Source: Catajapyx aquilonaris
Lineage: Eukaryota
DNA: 56,305 nt
NCBI GenBank assembly: GCA_000934665.2
Contig: KZ538647.1
Coordinates: forward strand, 1-56,305
Direction: 5' to 3'
The position numbers and the translations under genes were made by a program. This document shows, one piece after another, positions 1-46,644 of this stretch. The notes below the pieces were generated by a model. That model saw only the letters and a program-made list of their open reading frames with translations, did no database searches and was not told the DNA's origin. The number at the start of each line of letters is the position of its first letter. Within the stretch, counting starts at the first letter, position 1.

Positions 1-1572
1 ATGACCTCGCCCCCTGCCAGTGCCCTCAGGCTGAAGGTGGCCAGTCGGATGGAGGAAGGCGGACAGTTGAAGGTGGAGACTGTCTGCTTCTTCTGCGCAG
101 AGGGGGGTCAACCGAAGGTCATCGATCTCGGCGGGGTGCGCCGCAAAGAGAATTCGACTGTAGGTAGCCTCTTCAGAAACTACGACGTGAAAAAGATGAA
201 CAAGAAACCATTTGTGATTGGGATGTACGTGGGGCCAGCTGACATGGAAGACGTTCGAAGGAGGAGAAAAGAATCGGGAGAAGTTTACCTTAAACTTTTC
301 GAACGAATTTACATCGTGTGCGAGGAAGGGACCAACTTATTCATTTCTGAGATTTACGTGAAGGAGCCTACCAGTGCTGATATGGACCACAGGTTGGACA
401 ACGGCACTTGGGTTGGGCTGACACCTGATCTGTTGTCTGGACGGATCGATGGAATAGGCGGATTTCCTTGCACGGTGGACGCATATCGACACACCCTCAT
501 CACTCATCCCTTCTTATACGTACACGCGACATTCCTGACCAGAAGACCCGGAGGAGTGGTCAGCTGGAGGGTGATCTACAGGCCCTACGTCCTCCCCTTC
601 TGGGTGACCTTGGGGGTCACCCTGGCCCTCCTCCCCATCGCGATGGGCAGACTCTCCCGCTGCGACCCATCTCGAGGGAGGTCAGAGGTCGAAGGGCAGC
701 GACTGACCCTGCTGGGATCCCTCCACGTCCTGGCCAGACACCTGATAGAACAGCCCGTTCCCTTCCCCTCATCCCGCCGCTTTCTCTTCCTGGCCTCGTC
801 CTTCCTCTTCTTCTCCACCGTGGTCATCACTGGCTACAAGGCCAAGATGGTCTCCTTCCTTACCTTCCCCCCGAGGGAGTTTGTCCCGAGGAACTGGAGG
901 GAACTGGAGGAATCGGATTGGACCATCGAAGCTGACATGATCAGTTTTCTTCTCTGGAAGAAATTCCTCTCCTTCGTCGATGATCCTTTCTACCACTCCA
1001 TTGATGCGAAGTTGTCCATGGGGGACAGTATCCGGAGTTGCCTGCAGAAGATGCAAAGAAAGCAAATTGTCTGCGCTGGTGCGGACCTGTTCTTGGATCA
1101 GGAGATTTACCTCTTTCGCGGCACTTCTGGGCAGCCAACATTCCGTTACTCCGATGACCACATATTTCCGAGTTACAGTGGGTCGAGTTACCCCCGGGGC
1201 CAAACCATGGCGTATCACATCGGATCCAAAGTCGATAGATTTTTGAATGAAAATGATATGATATCAGTGATCTTGCGTGACTACATGTACCTGATGTTCC
1301 TCCGTTCCTTGGACCGAATCCGGGCCAGGGAGAGGGCCAACCCCCAAAAGGCAGAGGAAGTGTTGACCAGGACAAAGCTCTCCGCCATCTTCAACATGTG
1401 GTTGGTGGGACTGGCTGTTGCTCTGGGTGCATTTGCAATGGAAATCTTCACTCGCAAGTGTGGTGCGAAAGTGAAGAGCCTGAGAGCGAGAAGACCAGTC
1501 AACCTCTGCACCTCACCTTTACAAGAAGTCAAAGAAAGACCCTTAACCGGACAATATCCCTTTTTGCGTTGA
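1..1572 (+). CDS. Divergent ionotropic receptor (IR, iGluR-related chemoreceptor); intronless ORF of 523 aa, N-terminus possibly incomplete
   Basis: S1-like NGTWVGLTPDLLSGRID and THPFLYVHATFLTRRP; M1 (RPYVLPFWVTLGVTLALLPIAM); re-entrant pore segment ending LIEQP; M3 with a degenerate SYTANL motif (GYKAKMVSFLTFP) followed by PRNWREL; S2 region; terminal TM (LSAIFNMWLVGLAVALGAFAMEIF). No signal peptide is visible and the ORF begins at base 1. Confidence 0.88.
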   Translation: MTSPPASALRLKVASRMEEGGQLKVETVCFFCAEGGQPKVIDLGGVRRKENSTVGSLFRNYDVKKMNKKPFVIGMYVGPADMEDVRRRRKESGEVYLKLFERIYIVCEEGTNLFISEIYVKEPTSADMDHRLDNGTWVGLTPDLLSGRIDGIGGFPCTVDAYRHTLITHPFLYVHATFLTRRPGGVVSWRVIYRPYVLPFWVTLGVTLALLPIAMGRLSRCDPSRGRSEVEGQRLTLLGSLHVLARHLIEQPVPFPSSRRFLFLASSFLFFSTVVITGYKAKMVSFLTFPPREFVPRNWRELEESDWTIEADMISFLLWKKFLSFVDDPFYHSIDAKLSMGDSIRSCLQKMQRKQIVCAGADLFLDQEIYLFRGTSGQPTFRYSDDHIFPSYSGSSYPRGQTMAYHIGSKVDRFLNENDMISVILRDYMYLMFLRSLDRIRARERANPQKAEEVLTRTKLSAIFNMWLVGLAVALGAFAMEIFTRKCGAKVKSLRARRPVNLCTSPLQEVKERPLTGQYPFLR

Positions 1573-9640: not shown

Positions 9641-11859
9641 TCCAGATTTTAAGGAACGGTCGTGCTAGATTATTTTTTTGCTCCAATTGTTATGAAACAA
9701 CCTGCACACTTTCAATAAGCTTGTAACGAGAGTACATTTTTAAAAATGAATATTGCGCCAATGCGGAGTATTAATAATAATAATGCGGCAGATGGGAATC
9801 CACATCCCGCAATTTGGCGTGCAGTACACCGCGCAATTTCTGATTGCTTAACACCGTGTGCGTCAATACAGAGTGGAATGTTGCCTATCCTGATCCGGTA
9901 TGTCCGAAGAAAAACGAGCGCAATGAATTTTGGTGAAGCGAGAAGCAAATGAGCAGTATAACGAGAGGCTCATCTCCCCTTAACTCCATCCGCGGTCCTA
10001 ATTTCGGAGGTTTTTGGGGGGAAGGTGAAGGAACCCAAAGTCGTCTCTCTCTCTGGCAGAGAAATTGAACCAACGAGGCCCCGACATCAATCAAACCCTG
10101 GCAATAACTCCTAACGACTGACACCATTTTGAGAGTAGTTTTTTGGGACCAATATAAATTGCGTTTAACATCCTGCCCATGGTTAGAGTTGTGGCTTTGG
10201 TGAGCGACAGGGTTATCATTGCTGCGGGCAGAATTAGCCAAAAAAAATGAGAGAGGAAGGGTTTAAATTTCAATCAGTTTGATGAGAAATGGTTTTAGTG
10301 GGTCGCGAGGAATATAGAGGCAGTCTTAATAACAATGGGAGCGGCACTAATTAAATGAAAACTTGCAGGGAGGAAATTCCGGGAGACTTGGACTAACTTT
10401 TGGGAAATAAGAGACGGTCCCTCTTGGCCAATTAGTTTAGCGAGACGACCAAGTTATCAGTCCTTTGATATAGTGTGGGGAAAGAGACGGAGATGGTGAA
10501 GAAATACACGGGTTGTGCAGTGTAATGTGCTGGGTACTATCGCCGACAAAATGTACCGAGTCCCGACTCTTATTTTTTTTACATGTATAGACTGTCGGCT
10601 TGCAAATATCTTTTTTCCCCGGGAGAAGCGCATTTTCTTTCCGAAAATTAGATGCGATTTGGCCAAATCCGACCAGACTAAACTTTTGGTTATGCCCATA
10701 ACTTGTCTGGCCGTAGCAGCTTAGTGGCTTTAAAAATTATGGCGGAATATACTATCCCACGAAATTACTGCAGTAGAAAAGTTGGCCCAAATCGCCCCCG
10801 AATTTATTTGATCGCAATTTTTTTTGCCAATTGCGCCGTATAATGGGCATTTCCGGTTTATACGAACATTTCCATTTAAATGAACTCGAAAAAGGATCAT
10901 ATTCGGACGCTAATTTGAGCGCAAATTGTTCCCGATGATGTTACATTAAAAGTGAAACTCAATTTTCTACTACTTACACCTGTATCGCGGATATGCGCAT
11001 TTAAAAGTCAATTTTTTGTTCTGTTGAACTTGTAGGTACGGCCATTATTAGCATACGATTGCAATCGTTCGACCTTGATTCGAGCCCCGCATAAATTGGT
11101 TGCCGCCCCGATTTCATACCGACAATTTGCAATAGTTAAATACATCCAGTTGGCAGAGTGGTTGCCTTAACGCAGGCTAATTCTGTCCAATCGGATTAAC
11201 CCCCCTCTGGACATGACTAATGCGCTAATTATCCGGCGCGTGCTTGTTTGAAAACGAATTGGCGACGTCGCCCCCCTCCCCCATCCAAAATCGCAACATT
11301 CACCAGCAGCCAGCAGCCAAAGCTCCAATCTCAACAAAGGAATCCAAACATCCAGCCTCTGATATCGCTGGCATTGCAATCACTTACCGCAACATTATTA
11401 CCCCAATTGATTACGGACACTCGCTCTCCCATTGGCTGTCCAGGCTGCAACGACTTTATTTTCTAAATGAGCCAGTTAGGTTAACTATACAGTATACAGA
11501 TGAATATTTTAATCAGCACCGCAGGTCGATTATTCAGACAACAACGTTGCCAGGTTAGTTTCAGAGCCTCGGCAACGCCGTCTTAAAAGTAAGCCATTTT
11601 GTTGCCCCCCCCCCCCCCCAAGCGTATAGCGTTAGAAATAAGTGCTGCGCAGTACACTCGCTATACAGAGATTACGAGCGATCATTGATAATTCCTACCG
11701 TGAGCTCTGCGCAAACTGTGGTAGGCATACATACTGAGGTTTTTCGTTAAAAATGCAGCTATAGTTACGTTTGTAACGGCCATTTTGTTTCCTTCCAAAC
11801 GTAGCGTTGGAAATAAGTGCAGCGCCATACACTCGATATACCAGCTGTCATTGATAGTA

Positions 11860-23766: not shown

Positions 23767-25443
23767 CTCCAGACAGACGGGCGTAAAGAAACGGACGAGG
23801 GAGGGACCTATCAGATTTCTTCCCCTTTTCCCTGCCTGCCAACCCTTATCTTCTCACAAAGCTCTTTTCTGCTGCTCCAAAGAGAAGCGCATTCAGCGGG
23901 GGTCAGGCCCAACCCAAAGAGTTGTGGCCCATATAATGGATGAGGCCTCATCGATTCCTCAAATGACATCATTTGAGAGCAACGCATATTGTTGTCAGGT
24001 GTTGGCAAACATTCAGTTCTCCTTTTTTTGAGGGGGCCAAACACACACACGCACACCATTCCGCCTGGATGACCGCCTGATTAGCTTTCGACTTCACCAA
24101 ACACACCATCCATCAACTTCAACTGGATTCTACCCTCTCCATCAAGCCAGCTTACAATACACCAGTCACTTGTCAATCCTAAGAGCAAACAACATGGCTC
24201 TAGAGCCGGCTTGTCTGGACCTGCTTTTTTTGGAGGAAGAGTTTTCGTCCACTATAAAGGGGGACATATTCGATGTAGAATACCGCAATAATTACCTCGC
24301 GAAAGTGAAAACATGGCAACACTTCCCGGCTCGCCCCGCACTTGGGAGGTAATACGATATGCCACTAACAGATGGCGCACATCCTCTCTCTCTGCCCACT
24401 ACTGCCATTCTCAGGGGGCAAGTCGTACTACGTGCACGTTGGTGATGAGTCACCGTGGACAGACACAGTCTCGCTTTTCCGAAGGGCCTAAAATTCCCCG
24501 TCATTTAGATGAGAAATTCGCGTCAGCTCCTTTCGGGACTGATCTGGGCCAAGTTGGGCCGGATAAGAACTGGATCAATAGGAACAAGGTTGGCCAAGGC
24601 ACGGGTAGAATGGGTAGAGAGAGAGAGAAAAGAGGTTTTAATTGTCCGAAGCCCGCTGCTTCCACCACATAAAACCAAGCAAAGTACGTGCCTCTGACGT
24701 CATCCGGCCATAAACTTGTTTCTCTAACAATGCTTTCGTTCGACCCGCCTGGCCCCGAAATTTTGGAAGGTAGAAACGTGACCTTATTTCACACCCAGGT
24801 CATATCCACCAGACACATGTTTGATTGGAGTTCGACGTCCCCTATTCCTTATTCTTCCTTTAGTTGGTAGCAGTGTTGCAGTCTAATTCGAAATAATCGC
24901 TTTTGGGAGCCCACAGTTATTGACTCCTTTTCTTTTATTTTACGACAGGAAGCTATCTAACGAGTTACGGATTTTTTCCAAAATATCGCATAAAATAGTC
25001 GGGGGGAGAGAAATAGAAAGAATCCCGATAAAAAGGCGCATAATTCGTGGCTCATTACCTTCCTCCCAAGCCTGGATCGGAATCCAATAGGAACCGCGTC
25101 TTTTTTGGGAGGGGGCCTACGAGGTTGGCAACATTTCGCATGATGCATTGCCTCCATTGGAAAGATTAGTAGCAAGTTATGGGTCGTTAAACAGGCGTAG
25201 TTATATATGCACCTTTTTATATTTAGGGAAAAATTCCTCTTCGATACTATAAAATCGATCGAAATAAACGATCAAAAGATAGGCCAGTTGCCCCATAAAA
25301 TTTAAACAAATGCAAATTAATTTACTAAAATCAATTTGATGTTTATGGAGTCCTTTCTTCGCACCCACCTGTTTCCATGACCACGTAATCGACAACAATC
25401 GATGGCTATTTTTTGATGCCATGGAAAAATCACATTGTCGTGA

Positions 25444-25773
25444 CAATTCCGTTGCCACGAAGATCGGGTGCCATGGCAATCCCGTTGCCGGGAAGATCGG
25501 GTGCCACGGCAATCCCGTTGCCATGAATACGAGGTGACATGGCAATCCCATTGCCATGAAGATCGGGTGCCATGGAAATCCCGTTGCCAGGAATAACAGG
25601 TGCCATGGCAATCCCGTTGCCGGGAAGATCAGGTGCCATGGCAATCCCGTTGCCAGGAAGAGCAGGTGCCATGGCAATCCCGTTGCCAGGAAGATCAGGT
25701 GCCATGGCAATCCCGTTGCCAGGAAGAACAAGTGCCATGGCAATCCCGTTGCCGGGAAGATCAGGTGCCATGG
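25444..25773. repeat. 33-bp minisatellite, about 10 units
   Basis: Unit TGCCATGGCAATCCCGTTGCCAGGAAGATCAGG; it produces the 11-aa periodicity in the ORF track. Confidence 0.93.
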
Positions 25774-34730: not shown

Positions 34731-34884
34731 GTTAGGATAGGCCTGGTTAGATATTAGGTTAGTTATAGATTAGTTAGGTTAGGTTAGGTTAGAATAGATG
34801 AGGTTAGGTTAGATTAGGTTAGGTGAGGTTAGGTGAGGTGAGGTGAGGTTAGTTAGGATAGATTAGTAGATATTAGGGTTAGGT
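34731..34884 (+). repeat. Interstitial degenerate (TTAGG)n / (TGAGG)n tract
   Basis: ttaggttaggttaggttag...ttaggttaggtgaggttaggtgaggtgaggtgagg; shorter related tracts at ~28517, ~39665 and (opposite strand) ~49700. Confidence 0.85.
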
Positions 34885-44560: not shown

Positions 44561-45788
44561 TTGGCAAATTTTGTTGCGACGCAAACTTGATGTATGATAC
44601 AGGCCCTGCTGTAATGTGAGTATACAGCTCACTATTGGACCACTACATAGAGCTAGGTAAGCGCATTACCGCGACACGACCTATCGCATTTGATGTGGGG
44701 CCGGATTCACTTCTGGATTCTGCCCCCTTTGATGTCAAGCCGCGTTTGAGTGAACACCCGGAAAAACCTTGGTAAGCCTCCTGACATACGAGGCTTATAC
44801 TCTCCTTAAATCGCAAAAAATATATATAACTGGCAGAAAATGTTGGAAAAATATCCGTCGTTTAAAAAAAATTATGTAGGTCGGCTATACGAGAGTCAGT
44901 GTGTCACTAGGTCGCTTGGCATCGATTGGATCGCGTCCAATCTGCACACAAAAATTCCTGCAAAAAAAGGAAGTTGGAAAAGCCCAAAATGGAGGCAGAA
45001 TCCCGCGAATTCATCAGTGATGATGATAAGCGAGAGCACAGCCTTGGGAAGGGAAGATCTTGCACTATACAGGAAGCTTCGTCTGCCGAATGCAAACGAC
45101 CGATTTAGATTCAAAACTACACATTTGTATTCTGGGAAGGAGGGGGGTGTCTAACACGATCCCCCACCCAACCCGCAGCACCCACAGCTAGAGGGATAGA
45201 GACGAAGATGGCGAGAGACAAGAGAGAGTAGTTGGTGGCCAAATTTGAATTCTCAACTCATTTTCAGAGAACAAGTGTTTCCGAATGGCACGACAGGTTG
45301 GAGTCCGTTTTGTTCGCATTTATATTATAATAATATTACGCTGGCCCCTTTCATCATTTCCATCCTCCCCCTGGAGGCATGATAGATGTGACACGTGCAC
45401 ATGTAAGCATGCAGCTGGAGTAAAATTAACTGCGTCCGGACCCCTCGGAATGAATTGTTCCCCGCTCTTGTCCTTCGCCGGACACCATACCCCCAGCGAG
45501 CGACATGTGGAGCTCTTGGGACCCATTTAATTATTGTGTTCCGGTCGGAATGACCCCCAGTGACCACCATCCCACGCGCCATTTATTTCGTCGGTCCAAT
45601 CCTGGGGTAAAAACACACGGGCCGGTCTGGAACTGCGCCATTTGTCAAAAACCTCGGCTCCGTTTTTGGGGGGGCTTAAACTCTACACCTGAATCCTTCT
45701 GAATAGACCGACTCGACCGGTTCTGGACTTGTGAGGCATTCACACGAGATCCGAACCTGGATCACTTTTAAAAACCGATATGTTCTTG

Positions 45789-46061
45789 GTTTGGTTTAGT
45801 TTGGTTTATTAGGAAGAAGCCAAAGCAACTGTGGCTATCTGGCTGTAGAAGAAGCAAAGGTGGGACAGATGGAGAGAGAAACGAAGAGGAAGAAAGAAGA
45901 GAGGAAAGACTGGTATCTCTCTTAGTCTGTCTCCTATCCCAAAGACCTGTCCGGCTTGGGAGGCCCTACCAGTAGACGAAGCTACCGCCGGCATAGCTCT
46001 TGGGGTCACGGGAGAAACGCAAACCCCACCACCACGATAAGGTGGAGATACCATCGGGGGG
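45789..46061 (-). mobile_element. Full-length short non-autonomous retroposon (SIDE/SINE-like) with an HDV-like ribozyme head and LINE-like 3' tail
   Basis: TSD atatgttcttg at 45778-45788 and 46062-46072 (12 bp if the flanking g is counted); 3' stem-loop AGCCAgatAGCcacagttGCTtTGGCT, then AATAAACCAAACTAAACCAAAC tail; no RT-coding capacity. Confidence 0.82.
45911..46061 (-). ncRNA. HDV-like self-cleaving ribozyme (nested double pseudoknot, extended P4), predicted by eye
   Basis: Minus strand: P1 CCCCCC / GG(T)GGGG; P2 TGGTATCTC / GAGATACCA (9 bp, perfect); P3 ACC/GGT with L3 TTATCGT; branched P4 (TCTCC/GGAGA, CCCAA/TTGGG, CCGGC/GCCGG, GGTAG/CTACT); J4/2 ACTAA with the candidate catalytic C. 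P1 begins at the element's 5' boundary. Confidence 0.72.
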
Positions 46062-46644
46062 ATATGTTCTTGCAACTATTTCATTACGTAAAATATTGTT
46101 CAGACAGAAACGAAATGGTGGCATATCCATTGTTATTTGTTTGTTTGTTTGTTTGTGTTGCACATCCTTTTCTTTCCCTAGTGACGAAACCGAATGAAAA
46201 GTTGTGGTCAAAGTTGCGTCTTTGAAAAGATTTTTGCCCCCCATGAGACGATGACCCTTCCCTTCTCTCGAAAACTTTCTACATTACGCTTTTTTAAAAA
46301 TACCTACAAAACATCTGTAAAGAAACGTAGACAAAGTTTAGGACTTTCTTCCGCAAGATCTCTATAATCTTGGATCTATACCGAGAGGTTGTGATGCAAG
46401 TTGAATTTTTGTACAGTTTTGTATAACTTGTAGTCTATTGCGTTTGTATAATTTTTGTGCGGGTTTGTACTACTAGTAGTCTATCGTGTTTGCATAATTT
46501 TTGTATAATTTTTTTCAACTTTATATTGTTTCATTTTTTAAAATATTTCTCTAATATGTTTAATTTTTGTCTACTGAATTTCTTGTATAAATTTTGTAAC
46601 TTACATTTAAATGTATAATTTCTGTATACTTTCAAACGCATTGC

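Follow-up and report, generated by a model that had tools for sequence, protein, structure and literature searches.

A dispersed, high-copy retroposon with a predicted HDV-like ribozyme head that is shared with LINEs

The window analyzed here, the whole stretch of 56,305 nucleotides, contains on its minus strand one copy of a repeat that is best explained, with a probability of roughly 65%, as a high-copy, non-autonomous non-LTR retroposon of an insect, most probably of a termite, that carries an HDV-like ribozyme head, is transcribed with its host sequence and is mobilized by a partner LINE. The first 150 nt are, on strong evidence, a portable module, which in related insects makes up the 5' end of an autonomous LINE. 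Support also exists for assigning the element to a family of non-autonomous non-LTR retroposons that share a fixed 5' end and lack a Pol III head. The features of the copy are collected in Table 1.

An earlier reading of the letters alone (the sequence-only reading) had described a target site duplication (TSD) of 11 to 12 bp around a minus-strand unit of ∼270 bp, and this description is borne out. On the minus strand, CAAGAACATATC has exactly two matches within the window, both exact, compared to a chance expectation of 0.01, and 0 of 100 shuffles reach two. The C at 46061 can be assigned either to the TSD or to the element, so that the TSD measures 11 to 12 bp and the unit 272 to 273 bp. The source organism carries this unit in high copy number: 1,203 contigs of run X1 match it, and the summed contig depth of that run reaches 7,156 to 120,314 in the bins from 45783 to 46067, compared to 29.7 to 38.4 in the flanks. 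The jump from ∼30 to between 7,000 and 120,000 falls exactly between the two TSD copies. The head is also repeated on its own in X7 (organism B) and X9 (a termite gut metagenome), which show 44 and 39 loose contig ends, respectively, at 46061. In run X5, the 3' part is covered ∼20 to 30 times more deeply than the head. Neither a second copy of the retroposon nor an (AAACY)n stretch besides that of its own tail was found within the window, and literature searches, with Repbase outside their scope, yielded no description of the retroposon.

Table 1. Features of the retroposon copy and its surroundings (positions in the window; nt 1 corresponds to 46061, minus strand)
Feature	Position	Strand	Remarks
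Whole retroposon copy	45789..46061	-	272-273 bp; bracketed by exact 12-bp TSD
TSD, upstream copy CAAGAACATATC	46061..46072	-	Exact match; last C (46061) possibly nt 1 of the element
TSD, downstream copy	45777..45788	-	Exact match to CAAGAACATATC
P1 5' strand, CCCCCC	46056..46061 (nt 1-6)	-	Proposed cleavage 5' of C at 46061
J1/2, GAT	46053-46055	-	
P2 5' strand, GGTATCTC	46045..46052 (nt 10-17)	-	Invariant, but stretch fixed by the search pattern for relatives
Catalytic-core hairpin: P3 ACC, L3 TTATCGT, P3' GGT	46031..46043	-	P3 invariant in 11/11 sequences; L3 variable at positions 3-5 only
P1 3' strand, GG-T-GGGG	46024..46030 (nt 32-38)	-	T34 unpaired; A there in 10/10 relatives
nt 39, P1.1 partner of L3 nt 24 (46038)	46023..46023	-	A24-U39 here, G-C in 10/10 relatives
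P4, large branched domain with three-way junction	45926..46022 (nt 40-136)	-	RNAalifold: 32 pairs, 4 compensatory
J4/2, CTAAGA, starting with C137	45920..45925	-	Candidate for the catalytic cytosine: C at 45925
P2 3' strand, GAGATACC	45912..45919 (nt 143-150)	-	Homology with long relatives stops directly after it
Pyrimidine-rich spacer	45845..45911	-	Sequence reading
3' stem-loop, 27 nt, 11 bp with one bulge	45818..45844	-	-10.0 kcal/mol, z -2.3
(AAACY)n tail, AAACC AAACT AAACC AAAC	45789..45807	-	Period 5, 4.4 copies

The first 150 nt of the element contain all parts of an HDV-like fold in the order and at the places proposed earlier, as seen both by reading the sequence and in a descriptor scan. 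The helices follow one another as P1-P2-P3-L3-P3'-P1'-(P1.1)-P4-J4/2-P2', with P1' immediately after P3'. HDV-like ribozymes are cut where P1 begins, at its first nucleotide (PMC4908430, excerpted text); P1 of this element starts at the first base after the TSD, and the predicted cleavage site matches the element's 5' end in position. P2 had been described as a perfect helix of 9 bp, of which the 8 bp formed by GGTATCTC and GAGATACC stand, and the ninth pair, U9-A151, is confined to the window copy, with U.U in all five long relatives introduced below. An A-to-G variant at 45914, which makes up ∼46% of the X1 depth, retains a G.U pair with U12. The 3 bp of P3 close an L3 of 7 nt in which U at positions 1 and 2 and G-U at positions 6 and 7 are invariant in 11 of 11 sequences. 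P1.1 comprises one pair only, compared to the usual 2 bp of HDV-like ribozymes, and its second position is U.U in all sequences.

The core departs from the textbook form in the unpaired base inside P1, the C at position +1, and an extra GA between C-N-R-A and P2. P1 consists of six G-C pairs broken by this one base, a T or an A that is in no case complementary. A G at +1 with a G.U wobble at the base of P1 is near-universal in HDV and CPEB3-type ribozymes; here, +1 is a C paired with G38, and the cleavage site consequently has no G.U wobble. In HDV-like ribozymes, the catalytic C of J4/2 is followed by N-R-A, a pattern that the C-T-A-A of the window fits, with the two additional bases before P2.

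Taken alone, the HDV-like fit is not significant, because the relaxed HDV descriptor, which was built around this very candidate, yields 0.2 to 0.7 chance matches per shuffled window. With a P2 of at least 7 bp, 200 dinucleotide shuffles give a mean of 0.70 matches, and 51% of them contain one or more; with at least 8 bp, the mean is 0.23, and the share is 20.5%. The real window contains the candidate and one meaningless, AT-rich chance match near 10901 on the minus strand. The nested minimum free energy (MFE) of the first 162 nt has a z score of +0.20, with 116 of 200 shuffles folding as well. The descriptor matches, the MFE, and the fact that the fold was fitted by eye after the fact all agree with a retroposon head of ordinary kind that resembles the HDV-like fold by chance. 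Such a coincidence is nevertheless quite improbable. Each start position has a chance rate of ∼6 in a million (0.70 matches per 112,610 positions), yet the fit begins at the first base of the element, and by chance neither the conservation pattern, the compensatory changes, nor the R2-like core described below would be expected. What lies beyond chance is that the fold and a TSD-bounded repeat share precisely the same 5' end, together with the conservation pattern of the relatives. The search with HDV-like covariance models proposed by the sequence-only reading came out negative: the Rfam ribozyme families (HDV, CPEB3, and drz, including drz-Agam) gave no match to the window copy or to five relatives, at the gathering score or at E values of up to 10. 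The drz-Agam-2 family is found among the RTE- and baggins-type HDV-like ribozymes. The pseudoknot is absent from the Rfam models, for which a P4 of 97 nt should also carry a heavy penalty.

A scan of metagenome contigs, with the 5' strands of P1 and P2 preset by the search pattern, returned 57 loci, comprising 10 true relatives and 47 chance seed matches. A 24-mer from the head had given 0 matches in an initial scan of metagenomes, and 17-mer matches at 37 loci in genome contigs and 15 in viral contigs were rejected as chance, since none extends beyond 26 nt. All 10 relatives start at the C-run and have unrelated upstream flanks, which confirms the shared 5' ends expected at this point and agrees with the predicted cleavage site; the run contains 6 C's in six relatives, 5 in two, and 7 in two. 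Five long relatives align over nt 1 to 149 with 78 to 81% identity, and all similarity is lost immediately past the P2 3' strand; the contigs of the remaining five stop after ∼80 to 95 nt. Within nt 1 to 42 and 137 to 150, variation is limited to L3 positions 3 to 5, the unpaired base of P1, nt 39, and the N of J4/2, with the A of J4/2 in addition in one relative. This N is T, G, or A among six sequences, with C-G-A-A, C-A-A-A, and C-A-A-G occurring among four relatives. L060 lacks the candidate catalytic C.

The P1.1 pair between nt 24 and 39 covaries, with G-C in 10 sequences and A-U in one. A-to-G with T-to-C is the most frequent type of change. Overall, 97.8% of the structure cells pair, compared to 36 to 60% when the partners are slid. 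The window copy differs from the consensus of the relatives at 30 positions, 12 of them among 100 paired and 18 among 51 unpaired positions (Fisher P = 0.0011). Eight of the 12 differences at paired positions form four compensatory pairs. The P4 structure and the pair counts come from one and the same set of sequences. The covariation looked for is present in P1.1 (A-U to G-C) and in four pairs of P4, whereas P1, P2, and P3 show no variation; being invariant in 11 sequences (P1 and P3) or 6 sequences (P2), these helices provide no covariation evidence either way. The sample effectively consists of two lineages, so that each covariation counts as a single event. In comparison of the sequences, the 150 nt of the head show the behavior of a conserved, structured module with an HDV-like layout.

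A conserved structured module at the 5' end of a LINE might also act as an internal promoter, a protein-binding site, or a translation element without any cleavage, with the 5' end resulting from transcription initiation. The observed covariation lies mostly in the peripheral P4, which is possible for any structured 5' untranslated region (UTR), P1 to P3 are invariant as a promoter-like sequence would be, and the non-textbook core (C at +1 and the P1 bulge) goes along with the lack of an Rfam match. For L1Tc, the same 77 nt are described as promoter and ribozyme (PMC3383444 and PMC3185411, excerpted text); this double function makes a promoter role plausible here as well and need not exclude cleavage. 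The P1.1 covariation, in contrast, ties L3 to the base that follows P1, and no model other than the HDV-like one predicts this tertiary pair. The boundary of the module coincides with the end of P2, and J4/2 retains C-N-R-A with a free N, neither of which favors a non-cleaving module. The same applies to the P3/L3 core: compared by eye, ACC-TTATCGT-GGT is identical at 11 of 13 positions to the primer for the "catalytic region" of Drosophila R2 (PMC3414825, excerpted text), with mismatches at L3 positions 2 and 3, the latter being the P1.1 nucleotide. On these grounds, a module without cleavage is considered unlikely, and an HDV-like ribozyme remains the preferred reading of the head.

The sequence-only reading had suggested looking for a full LINE with the same head, and such elements are present among the relatives from other samples. 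In L057, L094, and L103, an AP-endonuclease open reading frame (ORF) starting with MLPLETKQ lies ∼230 nt beyond the head; longer database proteins with this start (30 of 32 residues identical) match Exo_endo_phos with 25.7 to 45.4 bits (cutoff, 24.5). The 5' end is thus shared with an autonomous LINE, the head showing 78 to 81% identity to these AP-endonuclease elements. The head also opens derivatives with internal deletions, in which only the end of the reverse transcriptase (RT) ORF is retained. L102 and L060 jump at nt ∼362 to the last 35 codons of this ORF, followed by a short (TGAA)-type tail. In a search of the 38-aa L102 peptide against protein representatives, the RT C-terminal part of L102 and L060 is 89% identical to the C terminus of P0233, which itself matches RVT_1 with 33.4 bits (cutoff, 29.6). 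Within the window, no LINE with the 3' end of the present element was found, and tblastn with the RT C-terminus proteins gave no match. At least three architectures are seen: the head with a 122-nt (AAACY)n end; the head with the 5' UTR, the RT C terminus, and a (TGAA)n end; and the full LINE.

The 3' stem-loop is a candidate recognition site for the reverse transcriptase of the partner LINE. None of the X1 variants with a share of at least 10%, among those listed and mapped, falls on a paired base of its stem. One frame of the 3' part is open up to TAATAA; it is of low complexity, and a coding remnant was dropped as an explanation. The earlier guess that the partner LINE belongs to the I group had been drawn from the tail alone and is not supported. 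The head-linked LINE begins directly with the AP endonuclease and ends in a short (TGAA)n-like repeat tail, as RTE elements do, a combination that we take to be RTE-like rather than I-like.

A tRNA-like Pol III head, the absence of which had been noted from the sequence, is indeed not found. ARAGORN detects no tRNA, Rfam gives no match to tRNA, 5S, 7SL, or snRNA at E values of up to 10, and the unit contains no box B when up to 2 mismatches are allowed. Its single box A-like match (2 mismatches), located in L3/P1', is at chance level, with 202 such matches compared to 218 expected. A U1 snRNA-like origin of the head, suggested by a resemblance, found no support in Rfam and was dropped. Termite SINEs in print are tRNA derived (PMC9191728, excerpted text of S4 Fig), and the element contains no TTTT run, as would suit a classical SINE with a head from tRNA or another small Pol III RNA. 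The printed Talud consensus starts with the 9 bases found at nt 74 to 82 (GGCGGTAGC), the one 9-mer in common in a by-eye comparison (PMC9191728, excerpted text). This tRNA-like 9-mer begins 73 nt from the 5' end, in contrast to the Talu heads, which start 5 to 11 nt before box A, and the four published termite SINE consensus sequences in S4 Fig of the same excerpt show no further likeness to the retroposon by eye. The Talu SINEs resemble the element in host, which belongs to the same group of insects, in length (∼230 to 390 bp), and in their dependence on LINEs and differ from it in their tRNA heads with A and B boxes (PMC9191728, excerpted text). With the same head opening a LINE, a derivation from tRNA or another Pol III RNA is very improbable and is already largely refuted.

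For the preferred reading as a ribozyme-headed retroposon, the following multistep mechanism is proposed. The module would fold as an HDV-like double-pseudoknot ribozyme with a P1 of six G-C pairs around an unpaired base, a short J1/2, an 8-bp P2, a 3-bp P3, a 7-nt L3, a one-pair P1.1, a branched P4, and a C-N-R-A J4/2. The element would have no promoter of its own and would be transcribed within a host transcript, from which cleavage just 5' of the first C would set the exact 5' end common to all copies. The reverse transcriptase of the partner LINE may then be recruited through the 3' stem-loop together with the (AAACY)n tail. Target-primed reverse transcription into a new site would be the last step, producing the duplication of 11 to 12 bp.

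Similar arrangements are described for R2 and the R2/R1 short internally deleted elements (SIDEs) of Drosophila, which likewise carry an HDV-like head at the very 5' end (PMC3414825 and PMC3774820, excerpted text). According to the same excerpts, the R2 SIDEs consist of the ribozyme plus the LINE's 3' end, like the relatives L102 and L060. In the R2/R1 hybrid SIDEs, the identity shared with R2 covers only the ribozyme and 5 to 8 nt more (PMC3414825, excerpted text); this mirrors the five long relatives, with identity ending a few bases past the ribozyme in the former and right after P2 in the latter. R2 ribozymes show a P1 of 6 to 7 bp, with 1 to 2 mismatches at the top in about a quarter of the elements, and a highly variable P4 (PMC3774820, excerpted text). 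The irregular P1 and the variable P4 are thus traits shared with the present head, and mismatches in P1 are linked to weak or absent cleavage in that source. R2 and its SIDEs occupy a single site in the 28S rRNA genes and are few, in contrast to the dispersed and very abundant family described here with its ordinary duplication of 11 to 12 bp. The element further differs from R2 in its (AAACY)n tail, which takes the place of poly(A), and in its one-pair P1.1, to which L3 contributes the purine.

The L1Tc/NARTc system, with Pr77 and the ribozyme L1TcRz, also combines a dispersed LINE and short non-autonomous relatives that share a 5' module (PMC3185411, PMC4035085, and PMC3383444, excerpted text). 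The L1Tc ribozyme, whose activity is shown by experiment, begins with C1, pairs G with C in P1, and forms a single-pair P1.1 (PMC3185411, excerpted text). Cleavage at C1, the G-C-rich P1, and the single-pair P1.1 recur as traits of the present head, where cleavage is predicted only. The likeness seen is one of layout, L1TcRz comprising 77 nt compared to the 150 nt of this head with its branched P4 of 97 nt. Moreover, the host of L1Tc/NARTc is a protist, not an insect, and promoter activity is shown for Pr77. RTE and baggins represent a third case, with promoterless LINEs that are freed from host cotranscripts by HDV-like ribozymes (PMC6765202, excerpted text).

A 2019 review already describes some non-autonomous SINEs as using HDV-like ribozymes (PMC6765202, excerpted text). 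Given that ribozyme-headed LINEs and short derivatives are known from the rDNA-specific R2, trypanosome L1Tc relatives, RTE, and baggins, the principle is not new, and the retroposon is a new example of a known trick rather than a new kind of element. It adds a dispersed insect family of very high copy number in which the conserved head is a predicted ribozyme module and not a Pol III gene, as well as natural evidence that this module moves as a unit between elements. It also provides a test case for the tolerance of the HDV core toward a C at +1 and an interrupted P1. Elements of this kind are likely to be labeled "SINE" or "unknown" in termite repeat libraries and are missed by the Rfam models. 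A more far-reaching proposal, put forward tentatively, is that in termites the 150-nt HDV-like head, with its unusual core, serves as a portable processing cassette in place of a Pol III head. This cassette would be shuffled onto different LINE 3' ends, would bring promoterless short elements to thousands of copies via host transcripts, and may double as a promoter like Pr77. If this is true, the cassette would be a metazoan counterpart of the trypanosome Pr77 system.

The target-site duplication CAAGAACATATC occurs exactly twice on the minus strand of the window, at 46061–46072 and 45777–45788, against a chance expectation of 0.01; two matches were reached in none of 100 shuffles. These copies bear out the sequence-only reading, which had described a minus-strand unit bounded by such a duplication. 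The unit between them measures 272 to 273 bp, the C at 46061 being assignable to either the duplication or the element, and terminates in AAACC AAACT AAACC AAAC, with no other such stretch and no second copy of the unit within the window. Each of the fold and tail elements previously listed for the unit was found in its place (see the table). The head, the first 150 nt and a candidate HDV-like ribozyme, is joined directly to 122 nt without likeness to any other sequence reached. This 3' part contains one reading frame, of low complexity, open to TAATAA just ahead of the tail.

Parts of the unit (nt 1 = 46061) and the reverse transcriptase (RT) peptide of two metagenome relatives
Feature	Sequence or position	Strand	Basis
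P1	CCCCCC nt 1-6 with GG-T-GGGG nt 32-38	minus	read from sequence
J1/2	GAT	minus	read from sequence
P2	GGTATCTC nt 10-17 with GAGATACC nt 143-150, plus U9-A151 pair in window copy	minus	sequence
P3 and L3	ACC/GGT enclosing L3 TTATCGT	minus	read from sequence
P1.1	single possible pair A24-U39	minus	read from sequence
P4	branched domain, 97 nt	minus	read from sequence
J4/2	CTAAGA	minus	read from sequence
Pyrimidine-rich spacer	between head and 3' stem-loop	minus	read from sequence
3' stem-loop	27 nt, between spacer and tail	minus	-10 kcal/mol, z -2.3
RT C-terminal peptide ...EEALDRTMWRARFGRGFGPV.RQTTK	L102:55-168; L060 about 849-965	minus (L102); plus (L060)	

Taken alone, the HDV-like fold is no more than what is expected by chance. 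Rfam shows no ribozyme family in the whole window at the gathering score, and none around the unit or in five relatives at E values up to 10. For the first 162 nt, the nested minimum-energy fold does not surpass that of shuffles (z +0.20). A relaxed HDV descriptor, written around the candidate itself, allowed a single bulge at most in a P1 of 6 to 7 bp and combined it with a 3-bp P3, an L3 of 6 to 8 nt with U...G-N, one P1.1 pair, C-N-R-A plus 0 to 2 nt, and a P2 no shorter than 7 bp. It matches the candidate and one other place in the window, near 10901 on the minus strand (∼10760–10901), an AT-rich chance match with weak helices and without repeat context. The average per shuffled window is 0.70 matches, falling to 0.23 if P2 must reach 8 bp or more (200 shuffles each), by our arithmetic a chance rate of ∼6 per million start positions; the candidate's fit begins at the first base of the unit. 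Since the fold alone stays at chance level, the case must rest on position and comparison.

Of 22 sequencing runs, 4, all from organism A, contain half or more of the words sampled from the locus, and two runs labelled termite gut metagenome contain a small share of them. Contigs of four runs were compared with the locus stretch. In X1 (organism A), 1,203 contigs matched, and the summed depth, which differs from copy number and is read solely as "very many copies," rises from 29.7–38.4 in the flanks to 7,156–120,314 inside the unit. The steps coincide with the bins containing the two duplication copies. The unit belongs to a large family of repeats whose ends are fixed. The depth profile is even in X1; in X5, also from organism A, the 3' two-thirds of the element reach ∼20 to 30 times the contig depth of the head, which might be explained by copies truncated on the 5' side, by another type of library, or by a headless subfamily. 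Repetition is confined to the head in X7, from organism B, and in X9, a termite gut metagenome, with depths of 132,264 and 25,458, respectively, in bin 46030–46048. The main point at which contigs diverge into unlike sequence is 46061 (X7, 44 contigs; X9, 39 contigs; agreement of 0.43).

Other features of the window, which contains 49 N in total, were recorded alongside the unit. A 523-amino-acid open frame begins at the window edge (1–1572, plus strand) and looks like an intronless ionotropic-receptor-type gene; its match to the ligand-gated ion channel domain is weak, Lig_chan reaching 20.9 bits with a cut-off of 30.8. A 33-bp unit repeated 10 times in tandem (25444–25773; 87% matches) overlaps a minus-strand ORF (25201–25743) without a Pfam match. 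An interstitial block of ∼23 copies of TTAGG, the telomere unit of insects, lies at 34754–34866. Together with the sequencing runs that contain the locus, this block points to an insect, probably a termite, as the host.

A 24-mer of the head has zero matches in metagenome contigs. The search was made with a 17-mer spanning nt 2–18, which fixes the 5' strands of P1 and P2, and reached 57 metagenome loci, 10 of them true relatives. Matches to a 17-mer in prokaryote (37 loci) and viral (15 loci) collections are attributed to chance, none being longer than 26 nt. Five long relatives (L057, L103, L094, L102, and L060) align over nt 1–149 with 78 to 81% identity to the window copy, and five short ones (L059, L105, L097, L062, and L054) align over nt 1–80 with 84 to 85%, where their contigs end. 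The 5' start at the C-run (5 to 7 C), a common end that the sequence-only reading had proposed as a check, is seen in all 10 relatives, and their upstream flanks are unrelated. (AT)n or (GTAT)n microsatellites stand directly upstream of the head in three relatives (L103, L094, and L057), an adjacency for which a target preference of an endonuclease or seeding by microsatellites may account.

Homology between the window copy and the five long relatives ends directly after the 3' strand of P2, so that the module they have in common coincides exactly with the proposed ribozyme. This resembles the R2/R1 hybrid SIDEs (short internally deleted non-LTR elements) of Drosophila, whose identity to R2 is limited to the ribozyme and 5 to 8 nt (PMC3414825). 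By eye, the ACC-TTATCGT-GGT core agrees at 11 of 13 positions with the "conserved catalytic region" primer for Drosophila R2 in the same paper; the mismatches are L3 positions 2 and 3, the latter being the P1.1 nucleotide. Variable sites in the core (nt 1–42 and 137–150) are limited to L3 positions 3 to 5, the unpaired P1 base, nt 39, the N of J4/2, and one A of J4/2. The unpaired P1 base is T in the window and A in all 10 relatives, never complementary to its C. The N of the C-N-R-A motif is T, G, or A, the next A is also altered in one relative, and the candidate catalytic C is absent in one, L060.

The P1.1 pair A24-U39 of the window is G24-C39 in 10 of 10 relatives, both changes being transitions; this pairing of L3 with the base after P1 is specific to the HDV-like model. 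The MAFFT alignment shows pairing in 97.8% of 319 cells, compared to 36 to 60% with partners slid by 1 to 3 columns, and two pairs have changes on both sides, a level matched by 9 of 500 shuffles. For the P4 domain alone, RNAalifold predicts 32 pairs, 4 of them compensatory, counted on the same sequences that had served to predict the P4 structure. Between the window copy and the consensus of the relatives there are 30 differences in 151 positions, comprising 12 of 100 paired and 18 of 51 unpaired positions (Fisher P = 0.0011); 8 of the 12 paired differences form four compensatory pairs. The covariation looked for across P1 to P4 was thus found in P1.1 and P4, but P1, P2, and P3 are invariant in this sample and therefore neither supported nor contradicted. 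Effectively, two lineages are sampled, so that every covariation counts as one event. In organism A, the most frequent P2 variant, A148 to G (∼46% of depth), retains a G·U pair.

The head departs from the textbook HDV-like ribozyme in four respects: position +1 is a C paired with G instead of a G·U wobble, one unpaired base interrupts P1, P1.1 is a single pair, and two bases (GA) separate C-N-R-A from P2. According to PMC3185411, the L1Tc ribozyme, which is active in experiments, starts with C1 as its 5' end, contains G-C pairs in P1, and forms a P1.1 of one pair. For R2 ribozymes, PMC3774820 gives a P1 of 6 to 7 bp with one or two top mismatches in about a quarter of elements, a P2 of at least 5 bp, and a P4 ranging from absent to extensive; it also connects mismatches in P1 with cleavage that is weak or absent in some species. 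Fast cleavage is favored by a short J1/2 according to PMC4908430, and J1/2 of the head is likewise short.

Among the rival readings (ALTERNATIVES), the main live one takes the head as a structured, noncatalytic 5' module, such as a promoter or protein-binding site; the head could also be promoter and ribozyme at once, as in L1Tc. Within the reach of the tools, a head of tRNA or other Pol III type can be excluded, as the sequence-only reading had held: ARAGORN and Rfam find none, there is no box B inside the unit, and its one box-A-like match occurs at chance frequency. Four published termite SINE consensus sequences begin with tRNA-like heads (PMC9191728). By eye they show no likeness to the unit except for one 9-mer, GGCGGTAGC at 45980–45988 (nt 74–82, inside P4), identical to the first 9 bases of the Talud consensus. 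This match is possibly due to chance, or a tRNA-like sequence might have given rise to part of P4.

The five long relatives have ∼362 nt in common and then diverge. L057, L094, and L103 contain an ORF beginning MLPLETKQSGG ∼230 nt downstream of the head, with a one-base insertion in L103. This start is common to 452 longer database proteins (E values up to 0.001), and 12 of the best 120 have a precomputed PF03372 match. A Pfam rescan of five listed proteins found Exo_endo_phos in three (25.7, 45.4, and 28.0 bits; cut-off of 24.5) and no domain match in P0271 and P0276. Protein P0297 is identical to the ORF start at 30 of 32 residues, with the endonuclease domain from residue 41.

Past the shared part, L102 and L060 carry a segment encoding ...LKEEALDRTMWRARFGRGFGPV.RQTTK, a stop, and then AAATGAATGAA. 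The peptide matches 2,966 representative proteins at E values up to 0.001, the best 150 all short; nearly all matches are short spurious ORFs, and the peptide is enormously repeated in public data. Some arthropod genomes must contain a LINE 3' end with this peptide, or short elements bearing it, in very high numbers. Among the best 120 in a longer-protein search from P0050, one of the proteins matched by the peptide, PF00078 is precomputed in P0233 and P0269. P0233 spans the RT from the YADD motif to the C terminus of the peptide, with which it shares 31 of 35 residues, and reaches 33.4 bits for RVT_1 (cut-off of 29.6); P0269 lies slightly under that cut-off (28.9 bits).

In the host of the relatives, the head thus opens a LINE whose ORF starts with an endonuclease, and also internally deleted derivatives keeping just the 5' region, the last 35 codons, and the tail, which is the architecture of SIDEs. 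The 5' part with the endonuclease and the 3' part with the RT probably belong to one LINE, given the ∼362 nt in common. Its endonuclease-first ORF and short-repeat tail would be RTE-like. Of the LINE looked for, the head was found in the relatives, but no LINE fragment resembling the element's 122-nt 3' part is present in the window.

HDV-like ribozymes that occupy the 5' ends of LINEs, SIDEs, and trypanosome nonautonomous elements with the L1Tc head are already in print, and HDV-like ribozymes are used by some nonautonomous SINEs according to a 2019 review (PMC6765202). Among the matches listed, the literature on HDV-like ribozymes and termites is mainly about viruses of the delta-like kind and about RNAs with viroid-like or self-cleaving ribozymes, and one paper concerns R2. 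No description of a ribozyme-headed element in termites was found in this literature or in that on termite SINEs and on HDV-like ribozymes of RTE, BovB, and SINE elements, Repbase and the supplements of closed papers lying outside its scope. The element is of interest to transposon and ribozyme research and has practical value for repeat annotation.
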